Below are positions 1,986 through 60,831 of a DNA stretch of 64,000 bases, one piece after another. The stretch comes from an uncultured virus (IMG/VR IMGVR_UViG_3300050509_000576). Its lineage: Duplodnaviria; Heunggongvirae; Uroviricota; Caudoviricetes. Both the position numbers and the translations under genes were made by a program. Location of the stretch: IMG/VR virus record IMGVR_UViG_3300050509_000576; one strand, given 5' to 3'. The notes below the pieces were generated by a model. That model did no database searches and was not told the DNA's origin. It was given only the letters and a program-made list of their open reading frames with translations. Positions within the stretch are counted from its first letter, which is position 1. Each line of letters begins with the position of its first letter.

Positions 1986-3026
1986 ATGGCCGACGCTATA
2001 AACGTGCAAATCGCCGATGCTATGACGGCGCGCCTCCTCCAGGTCGGCCGGGCCGAGACGCGCGAGCGCCAGGAGGTGTGGGCTATTCTCCTCTTGCTGG
2101 AGCAGGATCTGCTTAGTGCGCTCCGGGAAGCCGACCCGGCGCAGTTCTCGTTGCTCGTAGCCAGGCGGCGAACGGTCCAGGCGCTGATGCGCGATGAGGT
2201 GGACCCCCTCGTGACGACCCGGTACGCGCAGATTGCTCGCGACGTGGACGCGTTTCTCATCGCCCTGGCCGAGCAAGAGGCGACCAGCACGCAGCGTATC
2301 GTCAATACCGCTACCGAGGCCCGGACCATCGAGGAGGTGCCTAGTGAGACGGCGCTGCGCCGGGTCGTACGGCAGACGCTCATCCCGAGCCCGGCGACGC
2401 CGACGGATCTGAGTACCACGGGCGCGGACTGGTGGAGCCGCGCGGCGGCCGGACTCGTGACCCGTCTCGGCGATTCGCTCATGGTGGGGGTGAGCCTGGA
2501 AGAACCCACGCCGACGCTCGTTGCACGCGTGCACGGCACGGCGGCCAACGGCTTTCAGGATGGGATTATGGCGAAGGCGAAAGAGGACGCGGCCCGACTC
2601 CTGCGTACGCAGACGACGAACGCGGTGAGCGAGGCACGGGTCAAGGTGGCCGATGTCAATGCGGACGTCGTACAGGTAGAACATAGCTCGATCCTTGACA
2701 GCCATACGTCTACTCTCTGCCTAGGCAGGCATGGGTTGCGCTATACCGTGCCGGAGCATGAACCTATCAATCATAGCGTCCCGTATCTCCATGGACCCCC
2801 GTACCATCCCGGGTGTCGTAGTGAGATGATCCCTGTCGTGCCGGACGGCGGACGCGTGCCGCAACAGACGGTGAGTCAGTGGCTCTCCCGCCGTGATACG
2901 GCGTATCAGGATGCCGTGTTAGGTCCCACGCGCGCACGCATGTTTCGCGCCGGGACGCTGACCCCCCGGCAACTGATCGACAGTCTCACGGGCAAGCCAC
3001 TCACCTTAGAGGAGTTGGGCGTATGA
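1986..3026 (+). CDS. Minor head / head morphogenesis protein (SPP1 gp7, Mu F-like)
   Basis: LD..TS..C and PPYHPGCRS motifs; C-terminal LTLEEL. Confidence 0.85.
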   Translation: MADAINVQIADAMTARLLQVGRAETRERQEVWAILLLLEQDLLSALREADPAQFSLLVARRRTVQALMRDEVDPLVTTRYAQIARDVDAFLIALAEQEATSTQRIVNTATEARTIEEVPSETALRRVVRQTLIPSPATPTDLSTTGADWWSRAAAGLVTRLGDSLMVGVSLEEPTPTLVARVHGTAANGFQDGIMAKAKEDAARLLRTQTTNAVSEARVKVADVNADVVQVEHSSILDSHTSTLCLGRHGLRYTVPEHEPINHSVPYLHGPPYHPGCRSEMIPVVPDGGRVPQQTVSQWLSRRDTAYQDAVLGPTRARMFRAGTLTPRQLIDSLTGKPLTLEELGV

Positions 3027-3904: not shown

Positions 3905-4129
3905 ATGCTTGATACCCACGTGTGGGAACGACTGGAACTGCATGGCGTGACCGAGGAACACCTGCGCATGTTGGCGTGTGCCCTGGAGCTCCAGAAGAAC
4001 GGCTCCCTCGCCTGGCATTTCGCCCACGGCCATCTCTCGCAGTGCGATTTGCGCGTCACGTTTGCGGCTCGGCGGGCGGAGGTGGCGCGGGTAAGTGATG
4101 TGGTGTTTGAAGAGGCGCATCGACGCTGA
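3905..4129 (+). CDS. Hypothetical protein
   Basis: AGGAG RBS, ATG 3905. Confidence 0.6.
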   Translation: MLDTHVWERLELHGVTEEHLRMLACALELQKNGSLAWHFAHGHLSQCDLRVTFAARRAEVARVSDVVFEEAHRR

Positions 4130-4149
4130 GTGTCGATCCGCCCCGTGGT

Positions 4150-4212
4150 GCCGGCGAGGCGCCGTCTAGCCATGCCACGCCGTGTTGCGCCGGGCACCGC
4201 CTAGCCTGCGAC
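4150..4212 (-). ncRNA. Single pentamer-repeat guide-like unit (distal array segment)
   Basis: Plus strand: gccggcgag gcgcc gtcta gccat gccac gccgt gttgc gccgg gcacc gccta gcctgcgac; 54-nt motif spacing. Confidence 0.7.
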
Positions 4213-4215
4213 GCG

Positions 4216-4740
4216 CTAGGGACCTGTAATCACGACATACGGATCGCTAAACCCCTCAAACGTCACCGTGTAGCTGAAATGCGCCAGCGTCAACGTGCCC
4301 GCGCGAATGACCGGCGTCCAGTTGGGATTGGGACAGCCTTGGGCGACTGCAGTGGGATTGACGCTCTGTGCTGGCACGCTCAAACGGCCATTCTTCCCCG
4401 ACGTCACGGTAATCTGTGTCGTCGCGCTAAAACTGGTGGTGTGCGATTCAATCGGGTTGTTCCGATTCGCGCCAGGATTGTTGCAGTCCACGATGGCCGT
4501 ATAGCTGGCGGTGAGCGCCACGTCGGCATCGGTGTGGCCGACGCCCGCCAGTTCAAACGTGCTACACGTGACGGACTGGTCGGCATTGACCGTACAGCCG
4601 ATGGCGCCGGTTTGCAGGTGCGTGCCCGAGGGCGCTTGCGAGGGATCGAGGCTACTCGTAATGGCGGCCAGGGCACCGCTGGCGCTGAGGCACAGGGCTA
4701 GGAGGCTGGCGACCAGCCGGGAGCGCGAACAACGAATCAT
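4216..4740 (-). CDS. Secreted beta-rich hypothetical protein
   Basis: N-terminal signal peptide (ALA), several Cys, AAGGAG RBS. Confidence 0.75.
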   Translation of the reverse strand: MIRCSRSRLVASLLALCLSASGALAAITSSLDPSQAPSGTHLQTGAIGCTVNADQSVTCSTFELAGVGHTDADVALTASYTAIVDCNNPGANRNNPIESHTTSFSATTQITVTSGKNGRLSVPAQSVNPTAVAQGCPNPNWTPVIRAGTLTLAHFSYTVTFEGFSDPYVVITGP

Positions 4741-4954
4741 GGCGTGTCTCCTTGTGTTAGACGGGTAGAGGGCATGAACGGGACAGCGGGACTACCCTAC
4801 ACGAAGGCGACGCGTGAGGCAAGCGGCGGGACGAGAGAAGCAACCAGGGCGGGTTCCGGCCCGCCCCAGTCGCCCTACAGACGTTCACGAGTAGCCAGGA
4901 GTGTAGCAGATCCTTGCGAGTCCTGCACGGGAGTGCGATGCTATCCGTCACCGG

Positions 4955-5530
4955 CGCTGCAGCCATGTGGTGCCGAGCCCTGCACGACGGCGTGCGCCCG
5001 GGCTAAGCACGAGGGGCCACGCCGGCAGGGCGACGCGAGGCGAGGCCACACCCAGCCGCGTCTCGTCGTGGCTCGCGTAGCGATGCCTGCGCAGCCGGGC
5101 CTTGCGACGGCACGGCCGGCCAAGTCGGGCCACGCCTGCGGCGCCTGGCCGCGCGCGGTCAAGCCAAGCACAGACTCGCGTTGCCTGCGGGGACGTGCCA
5201 AGTCTCGTCAAGTCTCGTCGCGCCACACCCAGCGATGCCAGCGATGCCAATCCTGGCCTGGTCGCGCGTTGCCTCGTCTCGTCAGGGCGTGCGATGCCAG
5301 CGATGTGCCGCCGAGCCTTGTCATCCCCCGCGTGTCCTGACGAGCCGAGCCTGGCCTGCAATGCGAATCCTCGCCGTGTCTCGTCGTGCCACGTCAGGAC
5401 GGGCGAGGCCTGCGCGGCCGCGCCATGTCGCGTCTCGCGATGCGTGTCTTGCGTGTCCTCGCGATGCCTGCGGCGCCGCGCCTTGCCGATCGCTCGAAGC
5501 GACGCCTAGACAGGCCTAGCTATGCCTGCT
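4955..5530 (-). ncRNA. Pentamer-repeat array segment 2 (about 10 units), putative VIPR-like guide RNAs
   Basis: GCC(T/A/G)GC(G/A) motif at 5021, 5085, 5134, 5183, 5237, 5296, 5354, 5408, 5466, 5524, separated by G(C/T)C-NN pentamers. Confidence 0.8.
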
Positions 5531-6302
5531 ACGGGCGGCGGCGTTCTTCAATCAAGGCCGCAATCAGGTCGAGCCGCCGGTAGACCGCTGGATTGCGGGT
5601 TTCGGCATCTGCGGCGATACGGTGCAGATGCGTAGGAAAGTACTCGTGGACCTCGATCAGGCCGAGTTGACGAAAATAGCGCGTATGCGACCGCGCTGTC
5701 CTCTCCTTAATACTACTCCGATGCGCGAGCTCACGATTGCTCAGCCATTCGTCAGTATGGCGTAACAGCGTCCAGAGGCGGGCCATGTGCCAACTGACTT
5801 CCGCATGTTCCTTGATGCGCGGGGTCGGCGGTGGAAGCTGTCCGTTGCGGGTAAGAGGCGTAGGCTCTGGGATATGCTCCAGGGCATCTAGGCGGGTGTG
5901 AATGGCCGCGATGGCCTCCTTGAGCGGGTCAATATGGACGGTGATTGTATGCACGACAGAGAGGAGGGCTTTTTCACACTGGATGAAATACTTTCGCGCA
6001 TCCCGTCCGCGTTCCGTGCGTTCGACCATACACAGCTCTTTGGCCATGTCCAGCGTCAGCGCATACATGTGCTCAGGTCTGCCTGGTTGGGTTTTACTAA
6101 AATTGTGGTAAAAAAGGTAGTCAACATCTTCAAGGAATTGATACTCGCGAATGCGATTGGTTATCCAATCATTAAAACGATGGGTAACCCGCAGCCAGGC
6201 ATGCAATTTCCGGGCATCGACCGTCTGCACAAAGGCATCCTGAATGGTCCGATATTGAATGTCAAGGACGAGTGGAGTTATGGTAAGATCTTGCTCAGAC
6301 AT
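5529..6302 (-). CDS. AntA/AntB-family antirepressor with C-terminal HTH-like domain
   Basis: VDARKLHAWL..F.DWI..RI..Y.F, Y.LTLDMAKELCMVERTERG..ARKYFI.CEK. Confidence 0.9.
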   Translation of the reverse strand: MSEQDLTITPLVLDIQYRTIQDAFVQTVDARKLHAWLRVTHRFNDWITNRIREYQFLEDVDYLFYHNFSKTQPGRPEHMYALTLDMAKELCMVERTERGRDARKYFIQCEKALLSVVHTITVHIDPLKEAIAAIHTRLDALEHIPEPTPLTRNGQLPPPTPRIKEHAEVSWHMARLWTLLRHTDEWLSNRELAHRSSIKERTARSHTRYFRQLGLIEVHEYFPTHLHRIAADAETRNPAVYRRLDLIAALIEERRRP

Positions 6303-6432
6303 GTCGTCTCTCCTACTAGAGGCGTGTGTTCAGGGGTGACAGGAGAACCCCATCTCCTGCCTACCCCGTTAGTATAGCCTGTTTCCTCTTCCCATACAAG
6401 CCGAAAATTACGCTAAGTCATTGATATGCTAT

Positions 6433-7585
6433 GCCTTGCCAGCCGCCCATAGCCCAGCCTGGCCTACATATGCCTTGGCTCGTCCAGCCACGCCTGCGGC
6501 GCCGCGTCGGTCCGGGTCACGCGGTATCATGTCGCGCGACGACACGCGCAGCCTGCCTGGCCCGGCCTTGTCGGGCCACGCTCCGTCGTCCATGCGGCGT
6601 CTCGCCATGCCCGCGATGCCCGGCCGCGCCTAGCCTCCCGGCGCCACGCGCTGGCTAGCCACGCCCGCGCCGCTTGGCCCCGCGGAGCCGCGCCGTGCCT
6701 TGGCTCGCCCTGCGACGACCTGCGAAGCCTGCGGAGTTGCGCCGAGTCTTGCCGAGTGCTGTCGAGCCCCGACGAGTCGAGCGATGTCGAGCCCCGCCTG
6801 CGACGCCTCGTCTGGTCCCGCGAGACGACGCCAAGTCTTGCCACGCCTGCGGGGCCTCGCCTTGTCTTGCCACTCTACGCCATCCTGGCTCAGCCTCGCC
6901 TGCGATGCCCAGCCCGTCCTGGCCACGCGGGGACTAGCGCCGCCCGGCGGAGCCTCGCCTGCGGCGCCTCGCCATGTCCGGCCTAGACCTGACGCGTCGC
7001 GCCGTGCCTGCGGTGCCTCGTCTTGCGATGGGCTGGCTAGCCACGTCACGCCCTGCCTGCGATGCCCGGTCCCGCCCCGGCTCGCGACGTCTTGCCGCGC
7101 GAGGCCTGCAGTGCCTCGTCTAGCGATGGGTCAGCTAGCCCCGACCCGCCGTGCCTGCGACGCCAGTCCCTGTCATGTCGCGCCCTGTCTCGCGATACCC
7201 GGACCCGCCTTGCCGTGCCTGCGGCGCCACGGTCCGCCTTGTCCAGACCTGCGCTGCCCATCCCTGCCATGTCTGTCCTGCCTGCGTCGCGCTGTCTAGC
7301 CGGGTCCCGTCGCACCTCGCCACGGCTCGCGCTGCCTGCGGCGCCTCGCCAGGCCCGGTCTCGTCAAGTCATGTCGCGCCTGGTCTCGCCATGCCTGCGG
7401 CGCCAAGTCTCGTCTGGTCATGCCAGTCGCGGCCATCGAGGCCTCGCCTGCGATACCTTGTCTAGCCATGCCCGCGAAGTCGGGCCAATCCCCGTCGGGT
7501 CACGTCTTGTCACGCCTTGCCTGCGGCGCCTGGCCTCGTCATGCGATGTCCAACCACGCCACGTCTCGTCGTGCCTTGTCTGTAC
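6433..7585 (-). ncRNA. Pentamer-repeat array segment 1 (about 21 units), putative VIPR-like guide RNAs
   Basis: GCCTGCG (minus strand CGCAGGC) recurs mostly at 49/54/59/64/69-nt spacing (9+5n), e.g. 6957, 7006, 7055, 7104, 7153; the intervening pentamers have a constrained triplet and a variable dinucleotide. Confidence 0.85.
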
Positions 7586-7592
7586 TTCTTAC

Positions 7593-8243
7593 CTACGCCA
7601 CCACGCTCGTCGTGCCGCGCTCGCTGCGCAGGGCCGCTTCCCATCGGGCGGCAAACGCCTCGATGTCCGGCGGGGGGAGGTCTGCGACTTCGCGCACCTG
7701 ATGCGCCCGGAGGGCCTGAACCGCACTGCCCATGGCCTCGATGCGCCGCTCCAGGCCGTTGCGTTGCTCGGCAAAGCCCGTCATCACAAATTCAAAATCT
7801 CCTATAGTAAAATGTACCAGTGGTTTCACGACCGTCTGCGTCGCATACAACGTCGTGGTCAAAATCCGAGGAAACACGACCTTCGGCCCTGTCCATGGCA
7901 GGCGTTCGACCCGGACCCGGACGGGCTTGCCCGCCTGGGCCGGATCGGTTGGGGTTGTCTGCTGGACGAGGATACTGCCCTGGGCCGCCGTCCAGCCCTG
8001 GCGTCCCAACTCGTACCCGTTTAAGGTCCGGACTTTGTGGCTCAGCCCGAGCTGGGCCAAGTGCATGAGGATCTTGCGCGGCATGCGCTTGACGAGGCGC
8101 GGCCACAGTTTGGTGGTCGCTTCGCTCACGCCACTCAGGCGTTGCGCATGCCGGCGATAATAGGCGAGGAGTTCGGCGACGACCTCGTCTTCCGTCTCAA
8201 ACATTGGCGGGGGCGGTTTAGGTGTCGTCGTCGGTGTCGCCAT
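7593..8243 (-). CDS. Hypothetical partner protein of the RAMP-like gene
   Basis: Overlaps the end of the upstream gene; stop lies a few nt before the array. Confidence 0.7.
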   Translation of the reverse strand: MATPTTTPKPPPPMFETEDEVVAELLAYYRRHAQRLSGVSEATTKLWPRLVKRMPRKILMHLAQLGLSHKVRTLNGYELGRQGWTAAQGSILVQQTTPTDPAQAGKPVRVRVERLPWTGPKVVFPRILTTTLYATQTVVKPLVHFTIGDFEFVMTGFAEQRNGLERRIEAMGSAVQALRAHQVREVADLPPPDIEAFAARWEAALRSERGTTSVVA

Positions 8244-8931
8244 CGTCGTCTCCCTCGCGCTCGATTGCTACCTGGAATAACCCGTATTCAATCCCGTTGG
8301 AATCCCGCGAATCCGGGCGGCCTTCGCCGACGCCCACCTGTCGGCCGGCCCGGATGAGGAGGTTGGTGACGTCCTGCGTGCTGAATTGTTCCTCATCATA
8401 GCGAATGGTCAGGTTGGCCGCCCATTCGCGCCACAAGGGCCGGACGCGCAAATCAATCACCCCCGTGGCATTCCGTACCGGGAGAATACTCTGTTCCGGG
8501 GTGCCTTCAATGCGCACGAGGGGGGTTCCGTCTACGACGTCCAGGCCGTCCGCCACAATAAAGACGGACAGTTTGGCAATCGTCATTTTAAAGCCCACGA
8601 GCCGGCACGTACTGATAAGGGCGTTGCGAAACGCGGCGCAGGGAATGCCGCAGGTGCCATCGGCAAAGAGGTGCATCGCTTGGCGGTAATCCTCGTCAAA
8701 ATCGCGGGCTTCCCGGACGCGTTTGGAGCGGGCCTGGGAGCCTTGCCGGTGCGTTTCTTGGATTTTGGCAATCGCTTTTTGGCTAAAGCGGCACTGCATG
8801 TACGGCGCCAGGCCGTGAATGCGAAAGGTCGCGGAGCTTTCGCGTAAGGGGCGAATGGTGACACCGGGATGTGCCGGAATGACAAACGGGGTGCCATTGC
8901 GAGGGCTCGGCGCGGGTTGCGTGCGTGGCAT
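8218..8931 (-). CDS. Stand-alone Cas7/RAMP-like RNA-binding protein (Vipr-like)
   Basis: F.I.G..P first strand, GIP..AF.NAL motif, R.RP.W.EW...L.I.Y, Gly-rich loop AGRQVGVGEGRP...G.EYGLF.V typical of RAMP proteins; AGGAGAG RBS. Confidence 0.8.
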   Translation of the reverse strand: MPRTQPAPSPRNGTPFVIPAHPGVTIRPLRESSATFRIHGLAPYMQCRFSQKAIAKIQETHRQGSQARSKRVREARDFDEDYRQAMHLFADGTCGIPCAAFRNALISTCRLVGFKMTIAKLSVFIVADGLDVVDGTPLVRIEGTPEQSILPVRNATGVIDLRVRPLWREWAANLTIRYDEEQFSTQDVTNLLIRAGRQVGVGEGRPDSRDSNGIEYGLFQVAIEREGDDDGDTDDDT

Positions 8932-9079
8932 AGGGTCTCTCCTCTACGTGTTAGACTATTCATGACTCTTGCTACACTCTATACATCTCGGGAGCGCACT
9001 CTACAGGAACGGTTGTGCGGAGGCAAGACGAGAAATAGTCCTTGACTTTTCCACAGGTTATCCACACTATGATTCTCTC

Positions 9080-9304
9080 AGAATCAGCGTACGTGTTCAG
9101 CCCAGTGCTGCGTATGCAGAACGATTCACACGCTTGCTGTACCTGATGCTGGTACAGTTGCTCTCCGCTAGGAAGCCTCGCTTCCGGGGCCTGGGCAAGT
9201 AAGAGAGACAGCAGAGCTCTCCGTTCAGGACGTTGAACGCCGTACTAGGGAATCTGCCAGGCTTGAGCCGGCAGAGGACGTCAAAACCTTAGCGCATAAT
9301 TGAC
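9080..9304 (+). ncRNA. Free-standing TnpB omegaRNA-like scaffold plus putative guide
   Basis: Homologous to 48495-48690 (minus); ends in IS605-type right-end hairpin GGAATCTGCCAGGCTTGAGCCGGCAGAGGACGTCAA (to 9284); TATGAT box at 9068. Confidence 0.65.
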
Positions 9305-9338
9305 TCTTGCCCTCGGGCGAGATCCGCCTCTGTCCAGC

Positions 9339-9380
9339 AAGCGGCCTTCGGGACCACGAGTCCTGGGGGCCGCTTTTTTT
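9339..9380 (+). terminator. Intrinsic terminator
   Basis: GCGGCC...GGCCGC stem followed by a T tract. Confidence 0.75.
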
Positions 9381-9465
9381 GTGCCTGCTCCTCTGTGGGA
9401 TGCAGAGAAGCTGATGTCTGCCGGCGGGATGCCGGCCCACCCACGCAACCGGGAGGGTTGTCGAG

Positions 9466-10242
9466 GTGCTCAAGCAAAGTTACGACAGTCAAATCGAGAT
9501 TCCCGCAGGCATCCAAGAGCACTATGCCGAAAAAGAGGGCCGGTGGCTGCTCCAGACGGATCCTGCGGTGGACCAAGCCGTGGAAGTCAAAAACGCCTTA
9601 AACCAGGAACGCGCGTTGCGCCGTGACACCGAAAAGCAGCTCGTAGAGCTCAAGACCAAGTTTGAAGGCGTCGATCCCGAGGACTACCGCAAGCTTCAGG
9701 ACCGGGTAAAGGGCCTGGACGACGCGGAGGTGTATGACAAACAAGGCATCGAGGTCCTCATTGCCCGGCGCACCGAGTCGATGAAAAACGACCATGAACG
9801 CCATGTTGGCATGCTGAAGCGTGAGAATGACCAGCTCAAGACGACCGCCGCGGACCTGGATCGCCGCTGGCGCCAGGACCGGATTAAAACCGCGCTGCTC
9901 GACGCGGTCACGCACAGCGGTGTCCACGAGAAAGCGGTCGATGATGCGGTCCATCGCGGCCTGGCAGTCTTCACCGACCTGGACGAGCAGGGCAACGTCA
10001 TTGCCCGCAAGGGCGACGACACGGTCTATAGCAAGGATGGGGTCAATCCCCTCAACCCGAGCGAGTGGATCAGCACGCTCAAAGCCAGTGGCCAGGCCTC
10101 GCACCTCTGGCCCCCGTCGTCCGGGGGCGGTGCCCCGGCGAGTCATAGTGGCAATGGCGCGGGGATTGATTGGAACAGTATCGCGAATCCGGCAGAACGC
10201 CTGACCCGCTTTCGCGAGTGGCAGGCGACGCAAACCCGCTAA
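9466..10242 (+). CDS. Capsid scaffolding protein
   Basis: Coiled coil, HLWP.SSGGGA C-terminal motif, directly upstream of the capsid gene. Confidence 0.8.
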   Translation: MLKQSYDSQIEIPAGIQEHYAEKEGRWLLQTDPAVDQAVEVKNALNQERALRRDTEKQLVELKTKFEGVDPEDYRKLQDRVKGLDDAEVYDKQGIEVLIARRTESMKNDHERHVGMLKRENDQLKTTAADLDRRWRQDRIKTALLDAVTHSGVHEKAVDDAVHRGLAVFTDLDEQGNVIARKGDDTVYSKDGVNPLNPSEWISTLKASGQASHLWPPSSGGGAPASHSGNGAGIDWNSIANPAERLTRFREWQATQTR

Positions 10243-20649: not shown

Positions 20650-20736
20650 GGGGAGGCCCACAAAAAAGAGGTGTCATTTGTGTGCGGCTATGCTAGTCTC
20701 ACGCTATCGACTGAGGAGGTAGCTCGGGATGCTAGT

Positions 20737-20858
20737 CTGTTCCCCGCGCGCGCGGGGATGAACCGTACACACTGACCTTTTTCATAGCACCTAGTATCTG
20801 TTCCCCGCGTGCGCGGGGATGAACCGAACCACCTCTGCACATCATACACGGTAGTCAC
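20737..20858 (+). CRISPR. Mini CRISPR array B, type I-E-like
   Basis: Repeats CTGTTCCCCGCGCGCGCGGGGATGAACCG (20737-20765) and CTGTTCCCCGCGTGCGCGGGGATGAACCG (20798-20826); 32-nt spacer; trailing putative spacer. Confidence 0.9.
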
Positions 20859-48494: not shown

Positions 48495-48836
48495 TTGACG
48501 TCCTCCGCCAGGGAAACCAGGCGGATTCCCAAAACTGGGGCTCCACGTCCGGAGCCGGGTGCTATGCTGTCACCCTTATTTGTTCGAGGTTCTGATCCCT
48601 CGAACCCCCATGCCAGCACCAGGCATGTTAAGTATGGGCATCGTGCTGCCTATGCAGCACTAGGCTGAACACATAGGCTGATGCTGGAGAAGAGTATAGT
48701 ACTTTATAACAAAGAGAAACAGTCAACAAAGACTAAACACGGAAGAGAAAAACCTTGAACAAAGGCTGTTGCCCTGACAGGGCACCCTTTCATTCCCCTG
48801 TCTGCTGAGGCGGACAGCCCCCTGAAAGGTATCTCG
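48495..48836 (-). mobile_element. Non-autonomous IS200/IS605-like element with omegaRNA-like scaffold
   Basis: Subterminal hairpins at both ends; right end ..GGCGGAGGACGTCAA; preceded by CCAC; homologous to 60078-60512 and 9042-9284. Confidence 0.7.
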
Positions 48837-48863: not shown

Positions 48864-49055
48864 ATGACCAATAGCGACCGCAATTTGCTGAATGCCTTGA
48901 CGACCCAACTCTGCGATAGCCTCGACGCCCTTACGGATACGCTGCAGGAGGTGGGCGCCGCACTGCGGGCACTCCAGGAAACCTCGCCGGCGCCTTTTGT
49001 GACGCGCGAGCATGTGCTCGTCCCGCCGCCGCCGCTGCCGGGTCCCTCGTTGTGA
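48864..49055 (+). CDS. Hypothetical protein (or C-terminal part of the BRO gene)
   Basis: AAAGGA RBS; in frame with BRO once the element is removed. Confidence 0.5.
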   Translation: MTNSDRNLLNALTTQLCDSLDALTDTLQEVGAALRALQETSPAPFVTREHVLVPPPPLPGPSL

Positions 49056-50272
49056 CGTACGGGCGCATCGCGGCGGCGGCCTTCGTGCTCTACGCCATCG
49101 GGCAAGGCGTCGCCGTGCAATCCCATGCCCTGTGGTATCTCCTCCTAGGGCAGGACGGCGGCTGGAGCCGCGCCACGCTGGCCGTGGGGACGATGCTCTT
49201 TCACCTCGCCGCGGCTGGCACGGGCGTCCTGGTCGGCCTCTGGATCGACGGTCACCAGGGCCGGACGCCGCTCGTGTCAGGAACGTTCTGGTTGGTGCTC
49301 GGCTGCCTCTGGCTGGGCGTCGCCCCGTGGCTCTGGGTCGTGTATGGGGGGTTTGTCCTGCTGGGGATGGGCTTTGCCTGCCTGGGGCCGGTGGTTGTCG
49401 GCAAATGGCTCGCCTCCCACGTGCCCGCACACGACCGCACCGCCGCCATGACCCTGGCCACCAGCGGGACGCAAGTCGGGTTGCTCCTCGCCCCGGTCAC
49501 GACCTGGCTGGCCCTGCATGGAGGTCGCACCGTCTTCGGGCTCGCCCTGGCCGCCTGCGCGCTGGCGGTGCTGCCGCTTCAGTCGCTCCTGAGTACGCAG
49601 GCGCATGCCCCTGCGTCAGTCCCGCTCGACGGGCCAGGAGCGGCACCCATGACCCTCACGCAGGCCAAGCGCCAGGGGGCCTACTGGCGCCTTGCTGCGA
49701 GTATCTTCCTGGTGGTCCTGGCGCAAGCCGGCTACGCCGCGCATAGTGTGCTGATTTACGGGTCGCTCACCGACCTCGCCACCGGGGCACAGCTCCTCGC
49801 CCTCTCGGCGGCGTGTGGCGTAGGGACGCGTCTGTGGCTGTGCCTGAAGCCCCCGGCCTGGCCACCGCCCACCCTCGCGGCCGTGGTCTACGGGGTGGAA
49901 GCCGTGGGGCTGGCGCTCCTCGCCTGGGGCGTCGCGCTGCCCGGGGCGATGCTCTTTGGTGCGTGTGCCACGCTCACGCTGATGCTGGAGCCACTGCTCG
50001 CTGCCCACCTCTGCGGCACGCATGCCTACGGCACACTGTACGGTCCCATCTACGCCGGCAGTCGTGTCGCTGCGGCGCTGGGCGCCATGGTCTATGGGGG
50101 AGGGTATGCCGGCACGGGGAGCTATACGCCCGTGCTCTGGGTAATGGCTGGGGGGCTCCTCGTGGCCAGTGCCCTGATCCGGGGAGCGATGCCACTCGCT
50201 GCACCGCAGGCGGCGGACGTCAGCCCGGCTCGCGCTCGCGGGTCGCGACGCGCCACGTTTTCCCGTGAATGA
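49052..50272 (+). CDS. MFS transporter
   Basis: About 12 hydrophobic segments, G.W.D..G.R loop, G...YG.LYG, TGSY. Confidence 0.8.
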   Translation: MTYGRIAAAAFVLYAIGQGVAVQSHALWYLLLGQDGGWSRATLAVGTMLFHLAAAGTGVLVGLWIDGHQGRTPLVSGTFWLVLGCLWLGVAPWLWVVYGGFVLLGMGFACLGPVVVGKWLASHVPAHDRTAAMTLATSGTQVGLLLAPVTTWLALHGGRTVFGLALAACALAVLPLQSLLSTQAHAPASVPLDGPGAAPMTLTQAKRQGAYWRLAASIFLVVLAQAGYAAHSVLIYGSLTDLATGAQLLALSAACGVGTRLWLCLKPPAWPPPTLAAVVYGVEAVGLALLAWGVALPGAMLFGACATLTLMLEPLLAAHLCGTHAYGTLYGPIYAGSRVAAALGAMVYGGGYAGTGSYTPVLWVMAGGLLVASALIRGAMPLAAPQAADVSPARARGSRRATFSRE

Positions 50273-52904: not shown

Positions 52905-53846
52905 CTATGAGGCATTTCTGTCCTTCTCTCCCTGCTCCGCCGCCTCCCGCTCCTCCCGCGCAAAAAGATCCTCGCTGCTCAGCTGCGGCGGGGGGGGCGA
53001 CGCCCCCTGGGGCGGCGTATCGGCGGCCTCAGACGCCGCTGGCGGGGGCTCGCGGCGGGTTCCCCGGGCCGGACTCCGCGTGGCGGGGGGGGGCACGACC
53101 TCGCCCGTGACCGTCGCCTCGGGGCCAGGCGGGGCGGTCGCGGGCATGGTCGGATTCAGGACCTCGCCGTAGAGGTCGGCAATCGTCTCGGCCAGCGGGA
53201 CGTCCGGCGCGGGGGGCGCGGGGGTCTGCAGGGCGAGCGCCATGGGGTGGGCCGACTGGCCGGGTTCCGGGTCCCAGTCGGGGAGCCCCAGGCCACAGAT
53301 GGCGAGGGTGACGCGGCGCTTGGCCTTGGTCTCGGCCCGCATCATGCCCGCCGCGCGCTCCGCCACCGTGAGCGGGGTCGTCACTTCCTTGCCGTCGCCG
53401 TCGATCTGCGTCTTAAAGTAGCGCTTGCCCTCCCGGGTCTGTTCCCAGCTGCCTTTGGCCTTCGCCATCGGCACTACGCCCTGGGCCTCTTCCTGCCGCC
53501 CATCCGGGGTACTGGCCCGGACGGTCACCACGTAGAGATCGTCCAGAAACTCGCGGCCGACCACCATGACGCTGACGCGGTGCAGCTTGCGCAGTTGCTC
53601 GGCGCAGCCCTTATCGGGGTAGAGGGTCACCCTGCCGTCGTCGCCCTTGAGCGCTTGGAACGGCTTGGTCAGGGGATTCAGGCCGACACTGCGGCACGTG
53701 GCAATGTAGTAGGCAATGCGCACCTCATCGGTCATCTGGGAGAGATCGCCAACGAGGAGCGCCTGCTCCACCGCTTTGGGGTCGACACTCGGGGGCAGAT
53801 AATCCAGCGTCGTCCGTACTACCTCGGTGCTCACCTCGGTACGCAT
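52905..53846 (-). CDS. Putative single-strand annealing (RecT-like) protein
   Basis: Y..A.C...GLNPLTKPF, M.AETKAKRR..L..CGL, disordered C-terminal tail. Confidence 0.6.
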   Translation of the reverse strand: MRTEVSTEVVRTTLDYLPPSVDPKAVEQALLVGDLSQMTDEVRIAYYIATCRSVGLNPLTKPFQALKGDDGRVTLYPDKGCAEQLRKLHRVSVMVVGREFLDDLYVVTVRASTPDGRQEEAQGVVPMAKAKGSWEQTREGKRYFKTQIDGDGKEVTTPLTVAERAAGMMRAETKAKRRVTLAICGLGLPDWDPEPGQSAHPMALALQTPAPPAPDVPLAETIADLYGEVLNPTMPATAPPGPEATVTGEVVPPPATRSPARGTRREPPPAASEAADTPPQGASPPPPQLSSEDLFAREEREAAEQGEKDRNAS

Positions 53847-59921: not shown

Positions 59922-60831
59922 GACGTCCTGATGACTGTGCCGCTCCTCCCCGAGACGCCGTCCGTGCCGTCGGGCGCATATGTTCAATGGGGCGAACGCA
60001 CACCGGCCCCCAATGCGGCGTGGCGTAGCCCCCTGTGGGCGGCCGCTTGGCCAGGGGGAAGGTAAGCATCGCCCCATCAATCGTCTCCTCCAAGGGGACT
60101 GCCTGCCTCGGCTGGCAGGGGAATTGGAGGTTGAGCCGCACAGGCTCAACAGGTGTTCAAGGCTTGCTCCGTCTTTGTGTAGGCTTTGTTCACTGTTTCT
60201 ACTAGGCATATCGCGGTATACTTTCTCTACGTCACGCTGCTTTGAGGCCGACGAGAAGGTGTCGCAGCCGAGACGTGCTCCTGTCACCGGGGGCACCGGG
60301 CAGGCTAAACGACCTTGAGCTACCAGGGACACCGAAACCTCCTTAATCCGCTGCCGTGCATGCGACGGCAGCCGGGGGCGTACTGTGCGTGTAGCGGATA
60401 GGTACCCCAGCCGTGAAGTGGTCAGCTACCCAGAGCATGCCACCACGAGGGCTGGAAATCTGCGCCTCAGGTTGCGGGAAGCCGCTGACCTTGAGGTAGC
60501 GGAGGATGTCACCAATCAGGTAACTGGTGAGCGAGCACGGCTCCTGCCAGATGAGGTGCGCCGTGAACAGCGCCTGGAGCGTCTCGACCCAGGCCTCGCT
60601 CATGCCGGCCCAGAAGAGGAGATTGGGCACCTGGGACGCTTCCGTGGCCATCTCGCCCCGCGTCTCCATAAACGGCGCGAGGACCGTCGGCATCTCCGCA
60701 AACGTCACGGAATCGTTCGCACGGATATAGGCGAGGAGGGCGGCGGCCGCGGGCGGCAACCCCTCGGCGGAGCGGTACGGCTCATACGGCGGCCCGGAGG
60801 GCGGTGTCTGTGTTCGGCCTCTCTTACCCAT
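59878..60831 (-). pseudogene. Hypothetical gene split by an IS-like element
   Basis: Removing 60078-60512 joins ..SYLI to DGAMLTFPLAKRPP.. in frame. Confidence 0.75.
60078..60512 (+). mobile_element. Non-autonomous IS200/IS605-like element
   Basis: Preceded by CCAT; left hairpin CTGCCTGCCTCGGCTGGCAG; right end GGAAGCCGCTGACCTTGAGGTAGCGGAGGATGTCAC. Confidence 0.75.

Follow-up and report, generated by a model that had tools for sequence, protein, structure and literature searches.

How does an omegaRNA come to stand in a stretch of phage DNA that encodes no TnpB, and what could it do there? The RNA gene that raises this question lies in the window, that is, the whole stretch of 64,000 nt analysed here, which comes from an uncultured virus (IMG/VR IMGVR_UViG_3300050509_000576, Caudoviricetes) and to which all coordinates refer. 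The window is a segment of the genome of a tailed soil phage, possibly less than the whole phage, with capsid, tail and replication genes, including a head morphogenesis gene at 1986-3026. The gene for a head scaffolding protein (9466..10242, plus strand; phrog_206, E 1.9e-31) lies 3' of the RNA. The record of a close relative (G003) is classed as a provirus, and the phage group is thus probably temperate. The window also holds an MFS transporter gene at 49052-50272.

Based on comparison with related phages and with IS605 elements, we interpret the RNA gene as a stand-alone omegaRNA, derived from a PATE, whose left end was lost within a promoter of the phage. In the following, we delimit the insert, describe its transcription signals, structure and relatives, and weigh what it might do.

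Limits of the insert and its empty site

A search with the scaffold protein yielded 19 loci, of which two are identical to the window, one is short upstream, one is too distant and 15 are informative. All 15 informative relatives carry the same -35 box and lack the RNA. The tetranucleotide CCAC, the IS605 target or TAM, stands at the insertion point (9062..9065, plus strand), and the original prediction had proposed to look for CCAY plus the guide at the empty site of related phages. This was found in 7 of the 15 (L011-L014 and L016-L018, 3 distinct sequences), where CCAC is followed directly by 17 of 17 guide bases. In three further relatives (one sequence), CCAC is retained but guide positions 2 and 3 are mismatched, and the remaining five have no guide match within 3 of 16 bases. 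Since CCAC and guide are contiguous in the empty alleles, the insert extends over 9066-9284 on the plus strand and comprises 219 nt, the exact number of bases that a contig of run X9 skips at this place. Among the 17 loci with sufficient upstream DNA, only the two identical to the window carry it.

The left edge is uncertain from 9066 up to 9071, because the next 3-5 bases are common to some empty alleles; at its start, the insert recreates a -10 box identical to the native one of L007, and the edge may have arisen by a crossover with an L007-type promoter allele. Towards the right, 9073-9284 aligns with the reverse complement of 48495-48691 (140/212 identical, 66%, E 1e-14). The earlier claim that 9042-9284 is homologous to the interior of the element at 48495-48836 therefore holds for 9073-9284 but not for its 5' part, as the insert starts at 9066; the motifs named in that claim, the right-end hairpin and the following flank were all recovered in place.

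The insert, a protein-less remnant consisting of omegaRNA scaffold and right end, contains no protein gene and has no adjacent effector or transposase. As had been predicted, the locus has no IS left end: five family left ends compared with the window matched only 48777-48836, 60078-60141 and, weakly, 53180, with no match better than E 4.8 within 2.7-7.5 kb and none at or near 9066 or 4130. The stretch 53180-53238, weakly similar to the left end of the element at 60078 (E 0.008), is possibly a fourth, decayed end. A tblastn search of the window for tnpB returned nothing, PF07282 was absent from all five records searched (G001 and G017 included), and TnpB was found in none of the four relatives searched. 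The prediction of a TnpB-type omegaRNA with an IS605 right end, lacking both tnpB and a left end, is borne out by this empty search and by homology to the 3' ends of tnpB genes.

Phage promoter, leader and terminator

The TTGACT box (9042..9047, plus strand), first taken for a part of the element, belongs as the -35 box to an ancestral promoter of the phage and lies outside the insert; in 15 of 15 informative empty relatives, it sits 17 bp before a -10 box of the form CA-N-N-N-T or a related one. The insertion point falls inside this phage -10 box, right after CCAC, and the first bases of the insert restore a putative -10 box, CACTAT (9065..9070, plus strand), at 17-bp spacing and identical to the native -10 of the L007/L008 allele. 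A second -10-like hexamer (9068-9073) aligns with the -10 of the element at 48495-48836. A sigma-70 scan of 8800-9600 gave no promoter sites, and the assignment is based on the alignment of relatives. Tandem 9-mers resembling DnaA boxes (9047-9055 and 9058-9066) overlap the promoter spacer, the second being shortened in some empty alleles.

Downstream, a putative intrinsic terminator (9339..9382, plus strand) combines a 16-pair hairpin (9339-9375) with a T run. One terminator-like site was found, near the shuffle expectation of 0.8, and its support is the conservation of the same hairpin in L009, L016 and L017. The empty alleles also carry the leader hairpin and the terminator, which indicates that promoter, leader and terminator before the scaffold gene are ancestral phage DNA. 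The terminator would end a transcript of about 305 nt. A terminator had been predicted after the element, and it is there, but it is not the element's own; likewise, the free-standing gene with signals of its own turns out to borrow both from the phage. The succession of promoter, conserved -10-like hexamer just past the start and terminator before head genes resembles the arrangement at lambda pR'. L019 (6745-6900) has another structured insert, of about 150 nt, after this phage promoter, and an AT run before the terminator; twister-sister is its best Rfam hint (17 bits vs 34).

Structure of the omegaRNA

Three domains can be recognized, all on the plus strand. The 5' domain (9081..9132) is common only to the insert and the element at 48495-48836, and by eye these two sequences allow a hairpin (9105-9122) and a possible pseudoknot (9081-85/9123-27 and 9092-96/9128-32). 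The middle domain (9138..9221), supported by covariation in seven protein-less copies, contains a hairpin at 9138-9156, a variable hairpin at 9158-9198, an AAGTAAG linker and a hairpin at 9203-9221, with loop-loop pairing between 9147-51 and 9209-13. The omegaRNA core with the IS right end (9222..9284) is also found in the tnpB-ending loci L127, L130 and L133; here, the loop of the hairpin 9222-9239 pairs with 9278-9282 to form the terminal pseudoknot. The right end itself shows GAAT (9250-53), a hairpin (9253-9275) and the terminal TCAA (9281-84), of which GAAT presumably pairs with TCAA as in IS608. The base after the first arm of this hairpin is A in the insert and T in 12 of 13 other distinct hairpins. 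This deviation might point to release from TnpA, but one copy from run X10 (see below) stops precisely at TCAA in front of a new flank.

In six core helices, among them both pseudoknots, the insert has preserved 32 of 32 pairs, and core pairs remain intact at only 66-78% identity to other family members. Two variable helices retain 3/6 and 1/3 pairs in the alignment register, where the insert folds its own versions. In the alignment of the seven protein-less copies with this 3' region, from which the structure was itself derived, 96.5% of cells are paired and 22 of 41 pairs changed on both sides, a result reached in 0 of 500 shuffles. The terminal pseudoknot shows 5/5 pairs in all seven copies with no two-sided change among them, and in L130 and L133 a G-C to A-U change was seen by eye. 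A model built from these protein-less copies (R1) scored L133, L130 and L127, none of them in the training set, at 63.9, 59.9 and 48.9 bits. Rfam gave no match in the window at the gathering score and only weak, chance-level matches in 8900-9500. An IStron was considered and rejected, as no group I intron matched at the gathering score, no intron of any kind at E <=10, and the insert lies in a promoter.

The predicted guide (9285..9304, plus strand) is the native phage flank, with 17/17 matches to the empty alleles and differences at positions 18-19. A match of this kind is the automatic outcome of IS605 insertion and by itself no evidence of domestication. Beyond 12 nt with 2 mismatches, there is no second target in the window, and the genome contains no junction of CCAC and guide, hence no self target. 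Guide positions 16-20, changed only in the window allele, can pair with the terminal GTCAA (probability ~0.47), and such a pair-back would compete with the terminal pseudoknot. A TldR-type domesticated guide was discarded, since the window has no TnpB homolog and the guide is the flank rather than another site.

The IS605 family and its TnpB-bearing members

The right-end pattern was found in 26 viral stretches. In 15 of these, it ends an ORF with a TnpB-like C terminus, as read from translations, so that the association of homologs with tnpB, on which the original prediction depended, is present; the others are two broken tnpB genes, one case at a contig end, the two of the window itself and six loci with protein-less elements. 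The TnpB of L127 has 348 aa (phrog_506, E 3e-57; ISDra2 TnpB, E 1e-18), and by eye its RuvC-II position is a glycine, with a glutamate further downstream; in an assignment made by eye without a tree, it would thus belong to the RuvC-II-rearranged type. Proteins of that type are described as active in PMC10530073 (TnpB2) and PMC10691335 (RIIr-5). L127, L157 and L158 encode full-length TnpB between near-identical ends, and compatible-looking TnpB elements occur in other viral records. The tnpB gene of the family at L133 (1433-2535) has its middle replaced by unrelated coding-like DNA, with both ends intact.

The window carries two further members of the family. The sister element (48495..48836, minus strand) is a complete protein-less IS605 MITE with left end, promoter, omegaRNA and right end, located after CCAC in a Bro-N gene; the left end of L127 is 86.5% identical to its left end over 52 nt. 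The third element (60078..60512, plus strand), also protein-less, follows CCAT and encodes a different RNA to which R1 gives no full-length match. The left ends of 12 family elements are preceded by CCAY in nine, by CAAT in two and by ACAC in one (L143), a count that is partly circular, as the edges were set by eye. Left-end damage is seen in other phage copies: L140 lacks the hairpin and L150a has it changed.

Two complete phage records with such protein-less elements (G014 and G016) gave no PF07282 match, so that use in trans would be the only use of their elements. The scaffold gene is absent from five of five records with tnpB or MITE copies, which are therefore other phages, and R1 found no copy in nine of ten further records. 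G014, a complete phage of 54 kb to which L140, L141 and L143 belong, carries at least four IS605 elements that encode no protein, and L140 weakly resembles HgcC RNA (31.4 bits vs 50). A further conserved 5' RNA domain, made of two crossing helices and an A-rich linker, is present in L141, L143, L149 and L150; it has no Rfam match and is possibly an undescribed structured RNA.

Copies in databases and metagenomes

Database copies of the insert are all identical to the window, and the four loci of a metagenome scan are all identical to the insert or the sister element. The region 9060-9290 had no blastn match in the plasmid and phage collections. A 17-base motif matched 12 viral and 83 genome sequences, and those not identical to the window never aligned past the motif (best E 0.001). 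Filled and empty alleles are both present in sample X9, and in X7 and X9 the filled allele still occurs together with the matching empty one, read depth giving no share of cells.

Two short, non-overlapping contigs from X10, a soil run of another, unrelated study, carry diverged copies. The first contains 9028-9197 with 3 differences in 170 nt behind L004-like upstream sequence, and is the same promoter fusion in another phage background, after a different upstream gene. The second contains 9199-9284 with 1 difference in 86 nt, ends exactly at TCAA and continues into a different flank. Of this flank, 30 letters were covered; they match a site behind ACAC near 4900 on the minus strand of the window (17/17 bases) and of L016-type phages (19/19), and 10 of 12 matches are this site. 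The site, at 4884..4904 on the minus strand of the window, is a second conserved phage promoter-like site (ACAC + 17 nt), which corresponds to the alternative X10 guide. X10 yielded only these two records at similar depth, so that they may form one locus; they may be accounted for by a guide swap at a single locus, by inversion between two copies or by two separate insertions. Around the second site, 4825-4929 (minus strand) contains a conserved extended -10-like box followed by a GC-rich hairpin leader that is likewise conserved. Both are present in L011, L016 and L195 whatever surrounds them, and the stretch possibly encodes a small RNA.

Neighbouring systems

The gene divergent from the insert (8218..8931, minus strand), outside the element, encodes a Vipr-like protein (SUSP1 Vipr 36pp_D, E 9.3e-5), and downstream of it lie arrays of pentamer repeats (16 runs vs 0.16 in shuffles). 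The neighbour had been described as a RAMP operon back-to-back with the RNA; the divergent arrangement is confirmed, but the match to SUSP1 Vipr and the pentamer arrays identify a separate, VIPR-like system. It spans 4950-5450, 6430-7590, 7593-8243 and 8218-8931 (all on the minus strand), and in its arrays the NN pairs are separated by G(G/A)Y or CGC triplets; an AntA gene divides the arrays into two blocks. CRISPR repeats at 1544-1635, 1941-1968, 3905-3935 and 20736-20829 form two one-spacer mini-arrays and single repeats, which we take to resemble type I-E. Two related phages (L006 and L019) have CRISPR arrays at the same place as 1544-1635. Neither the VIPR arrays nor the mini-array spacers had a convincing target among the loci compared.

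The insert was also thought to mark the right boundary of an accessory block at 4130-9284, which does not agree with an insertion of only 219 nt. The VIPR part (7466-9027) is present in L008 at 84% identity without the RNA, 4216-4929 occurs in L016 without the element, and other parts of the block are found separately in L011. The region is best described as a mosaic accessory slot of which the element is not the boundary.

Relation to known guide RNA systems

According to Meers et al. (bioRxiv 10.1101/2023.03.14.532601), PATEs encode omegaRNAs on which TnpB acts in trans. The insert resembles them in having no protein gene, an IS605 right end, a need for TnpB in trans and a flank guide that matches a TAM-bearing empty site. 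PATEs keep both ends, whereas the insert lacks the left one and depends on the promoter and terminator of the phage; the true PATE-like copies are the elements at 48495 and 60078. PMC10691335, which summarises Altae-Tran 2021, describes stand-alone omegaRNAs as functional in trans and calls their biological role unknown. They share with the insert an effector-less gene and a compatible effector expected elsewhere, but those in that account are mobilised and have their effector in the same genome, in contrast to a TnpA-immobile insert in a phage.

The terminal pseudoknot is a hallmark of the ISDra2 omegaRNA (PMC10097598), and, as in ISDra2, the scaffold ends at the right end, its last bases form the pseudoknot and the flank supplies a guide of 16-17 nt. 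On the other hand, the TAM is CCAC/CCAT here vs TTGAT, and the scaffold is clear of an ORF and has extra helices and loop-loop pairing. A TnpB gene drive on plasmids has been outlined that works without TnpA (bioRxiv 10.1101/2025.02.20.638934). In this system and in intronless phage homing endonucleases (PMC13565253), as proposed for the insert, the carrier cuts the empty allele of a related replicon and TnpA is unneeded; these systems encode their own nuclease, whereas the insert encodes a guide only. Viral CRISPR mini-arrays (PMC11656645) and VIPR (10.64898/2026.04.26.720920) are described as inter-phage weapons. Like a mini-array, the insert would supply a guide from the phage genome and rely on an effector of the host to act against related phages, but it has no repeat-spacer structure and its guide is its own flank, not an acquired spacer. 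An omegaRNA that lacks the left end and is joined to a phage promoter is not described in the titles and abstract openings searched, which cover few subscription journals; loci of this kind may be listed in the supplements of TnpB surveys.

Origin and possible function of the insert

We propose the following history. As the sequences show, a protein-less IS605 MITE of the CCAY family inserted after CCAC in the -10 box before the scaffold gene. Either a deletion or a crossover with a different allele of the promoter would then have removed its left end and its own -35 box, and in the resulting sequence the phage -35 box lies 17 bp from a rebuilt -10. From there, the phage promoter would transcribe omegaRNA, guide and leader up to the phage terminator, and the omegaRNA would load onto a compatible TnpB made elsewhere in the cell. 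This TnpB could cut CCAC plus guide in co-infecting or resident relatives with an empty promoter and spare its own genome; repair off the carrier would copy the insert (homing), and failed repair would remove a rival. Without a left end, the insert can be neither transposed nor excised by TnpA, which leaves homing and ordinary phage recombination as its only ways to move. That the locus is a left-end-less stand-alone omegaRNA, transcribed by the phage and homing with TnpB in trans, seems to us somewhat probable, and we lean slightly towards a homing element that consists of the guide alone, and not a weapon built for the purpose. Use in trans is supported by the family members with near-identical ends that bear TnpB (L127, L157, L158).

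The main rival, which we regard as rather unlikely, is that the MITE damaged a needed promoter, that the deletion was kept for the restored spacing, and that the RNA is an idle passenger not yet decayed. Promoter, guide and terminator are all native phage DNA, the two further family MITEs in this phage suggest that insertions are common, and left-end damage recurs (L140, L150a), all of which speaks for this rival. However, all core pairs are kept in spite of the divergence from the family, and the deletion left the RNA whole from the first helix onward, which argues against an idle remnant, unless the left end was lost recently; an intact scaffold would then be expected as well, and no parent copy with a left end was found for dating. 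The persistence of matching empty alleles in X7 and X9 favours idleness and tells against homing, as does the pair-back of the guide, which could silence the RNA; the two carriers among 17 loci, which give no sign of a sweep, also tell against homing. The near-identical fusion in the X10 background, in contrast, is what spread between phage backgrounds predicts and supports homing over an idle remnant, but ordinary mosaic recombination would also explain it and the contigs are short. Besides, an omegaRNA that is intact and transcribed would be active in any cell with TnpB, selected or not.

Apart from homing and idleness, the insert could be a domesticated, reprogrammable guide of phage against phage, a TnpB counterpart of the CRISPR mini-array that benefits the phage and takes new guides. 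Its partner could be an active TnpB or, as a repressor of the promoter of a rival, a nuclease-dead one. We consider this improbable, and hold it equally improbable that soil phages keep an immobilised guide scaffold under their own promoter and swap its guide between conserved phage promoters (that of the head operon here, a second one in X10), where borrowed host TnpB would cut or silence rivals. The right end shared by the second X10 contig joins a second promoter-like target, possibly in one locus, both targets are -10 regions, and a VIPR-like system and CRISPR mini-arrays lie in the neighbourhood. In this phage, though, the guide is simply the flank, and the X10 junction could also come from TnpA insertion of a sister copy (compare ACAC in L143) or from inversion between copies; only 30 letters of the X10 flank were covered, and tblastn of the window gave no nuclease-dead partner. 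Finally, the insert might terminate, on the right side, a 5-kb cargo element (4130-9284) that would move or home in one piece, VIPR operon included. Several relatives lack the entire block, and homing endonucleases are known to co-convert neighbours (PMC13565253), but in empty alleles the native promoter and CCAC run straight into the guide, there is no left end near 4130, and pieces occur separately without the RNA in L008, L011 and L016. These findings already contradict the cargo element, which is very improbable.

Implications

If the insert is idle, it is an ordinary IS scar. If guide swapping is true, rivals would be hit at promoters that they cannot easily mutate, and the locus would be an OMEGA analogue of CRISPR mini-arrays, reprogrammable and free of protein, that shares its island with VIPR and mini-arrays. 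For the homing that we somewhat favour, the locus names every piece: empty alleles with their TAM, a candidate TnpB and a guide that no transposase can move. It also offers natural escape-like alleles, with seed mismatches or a lost TAM, and allows a direct test of whether a 219-base RNA gene can drive through a phage population with a borrowed nuclease. Overall, the locus shows a route by which the end of a selfish insertion sequence may become a phage-expressed guide.
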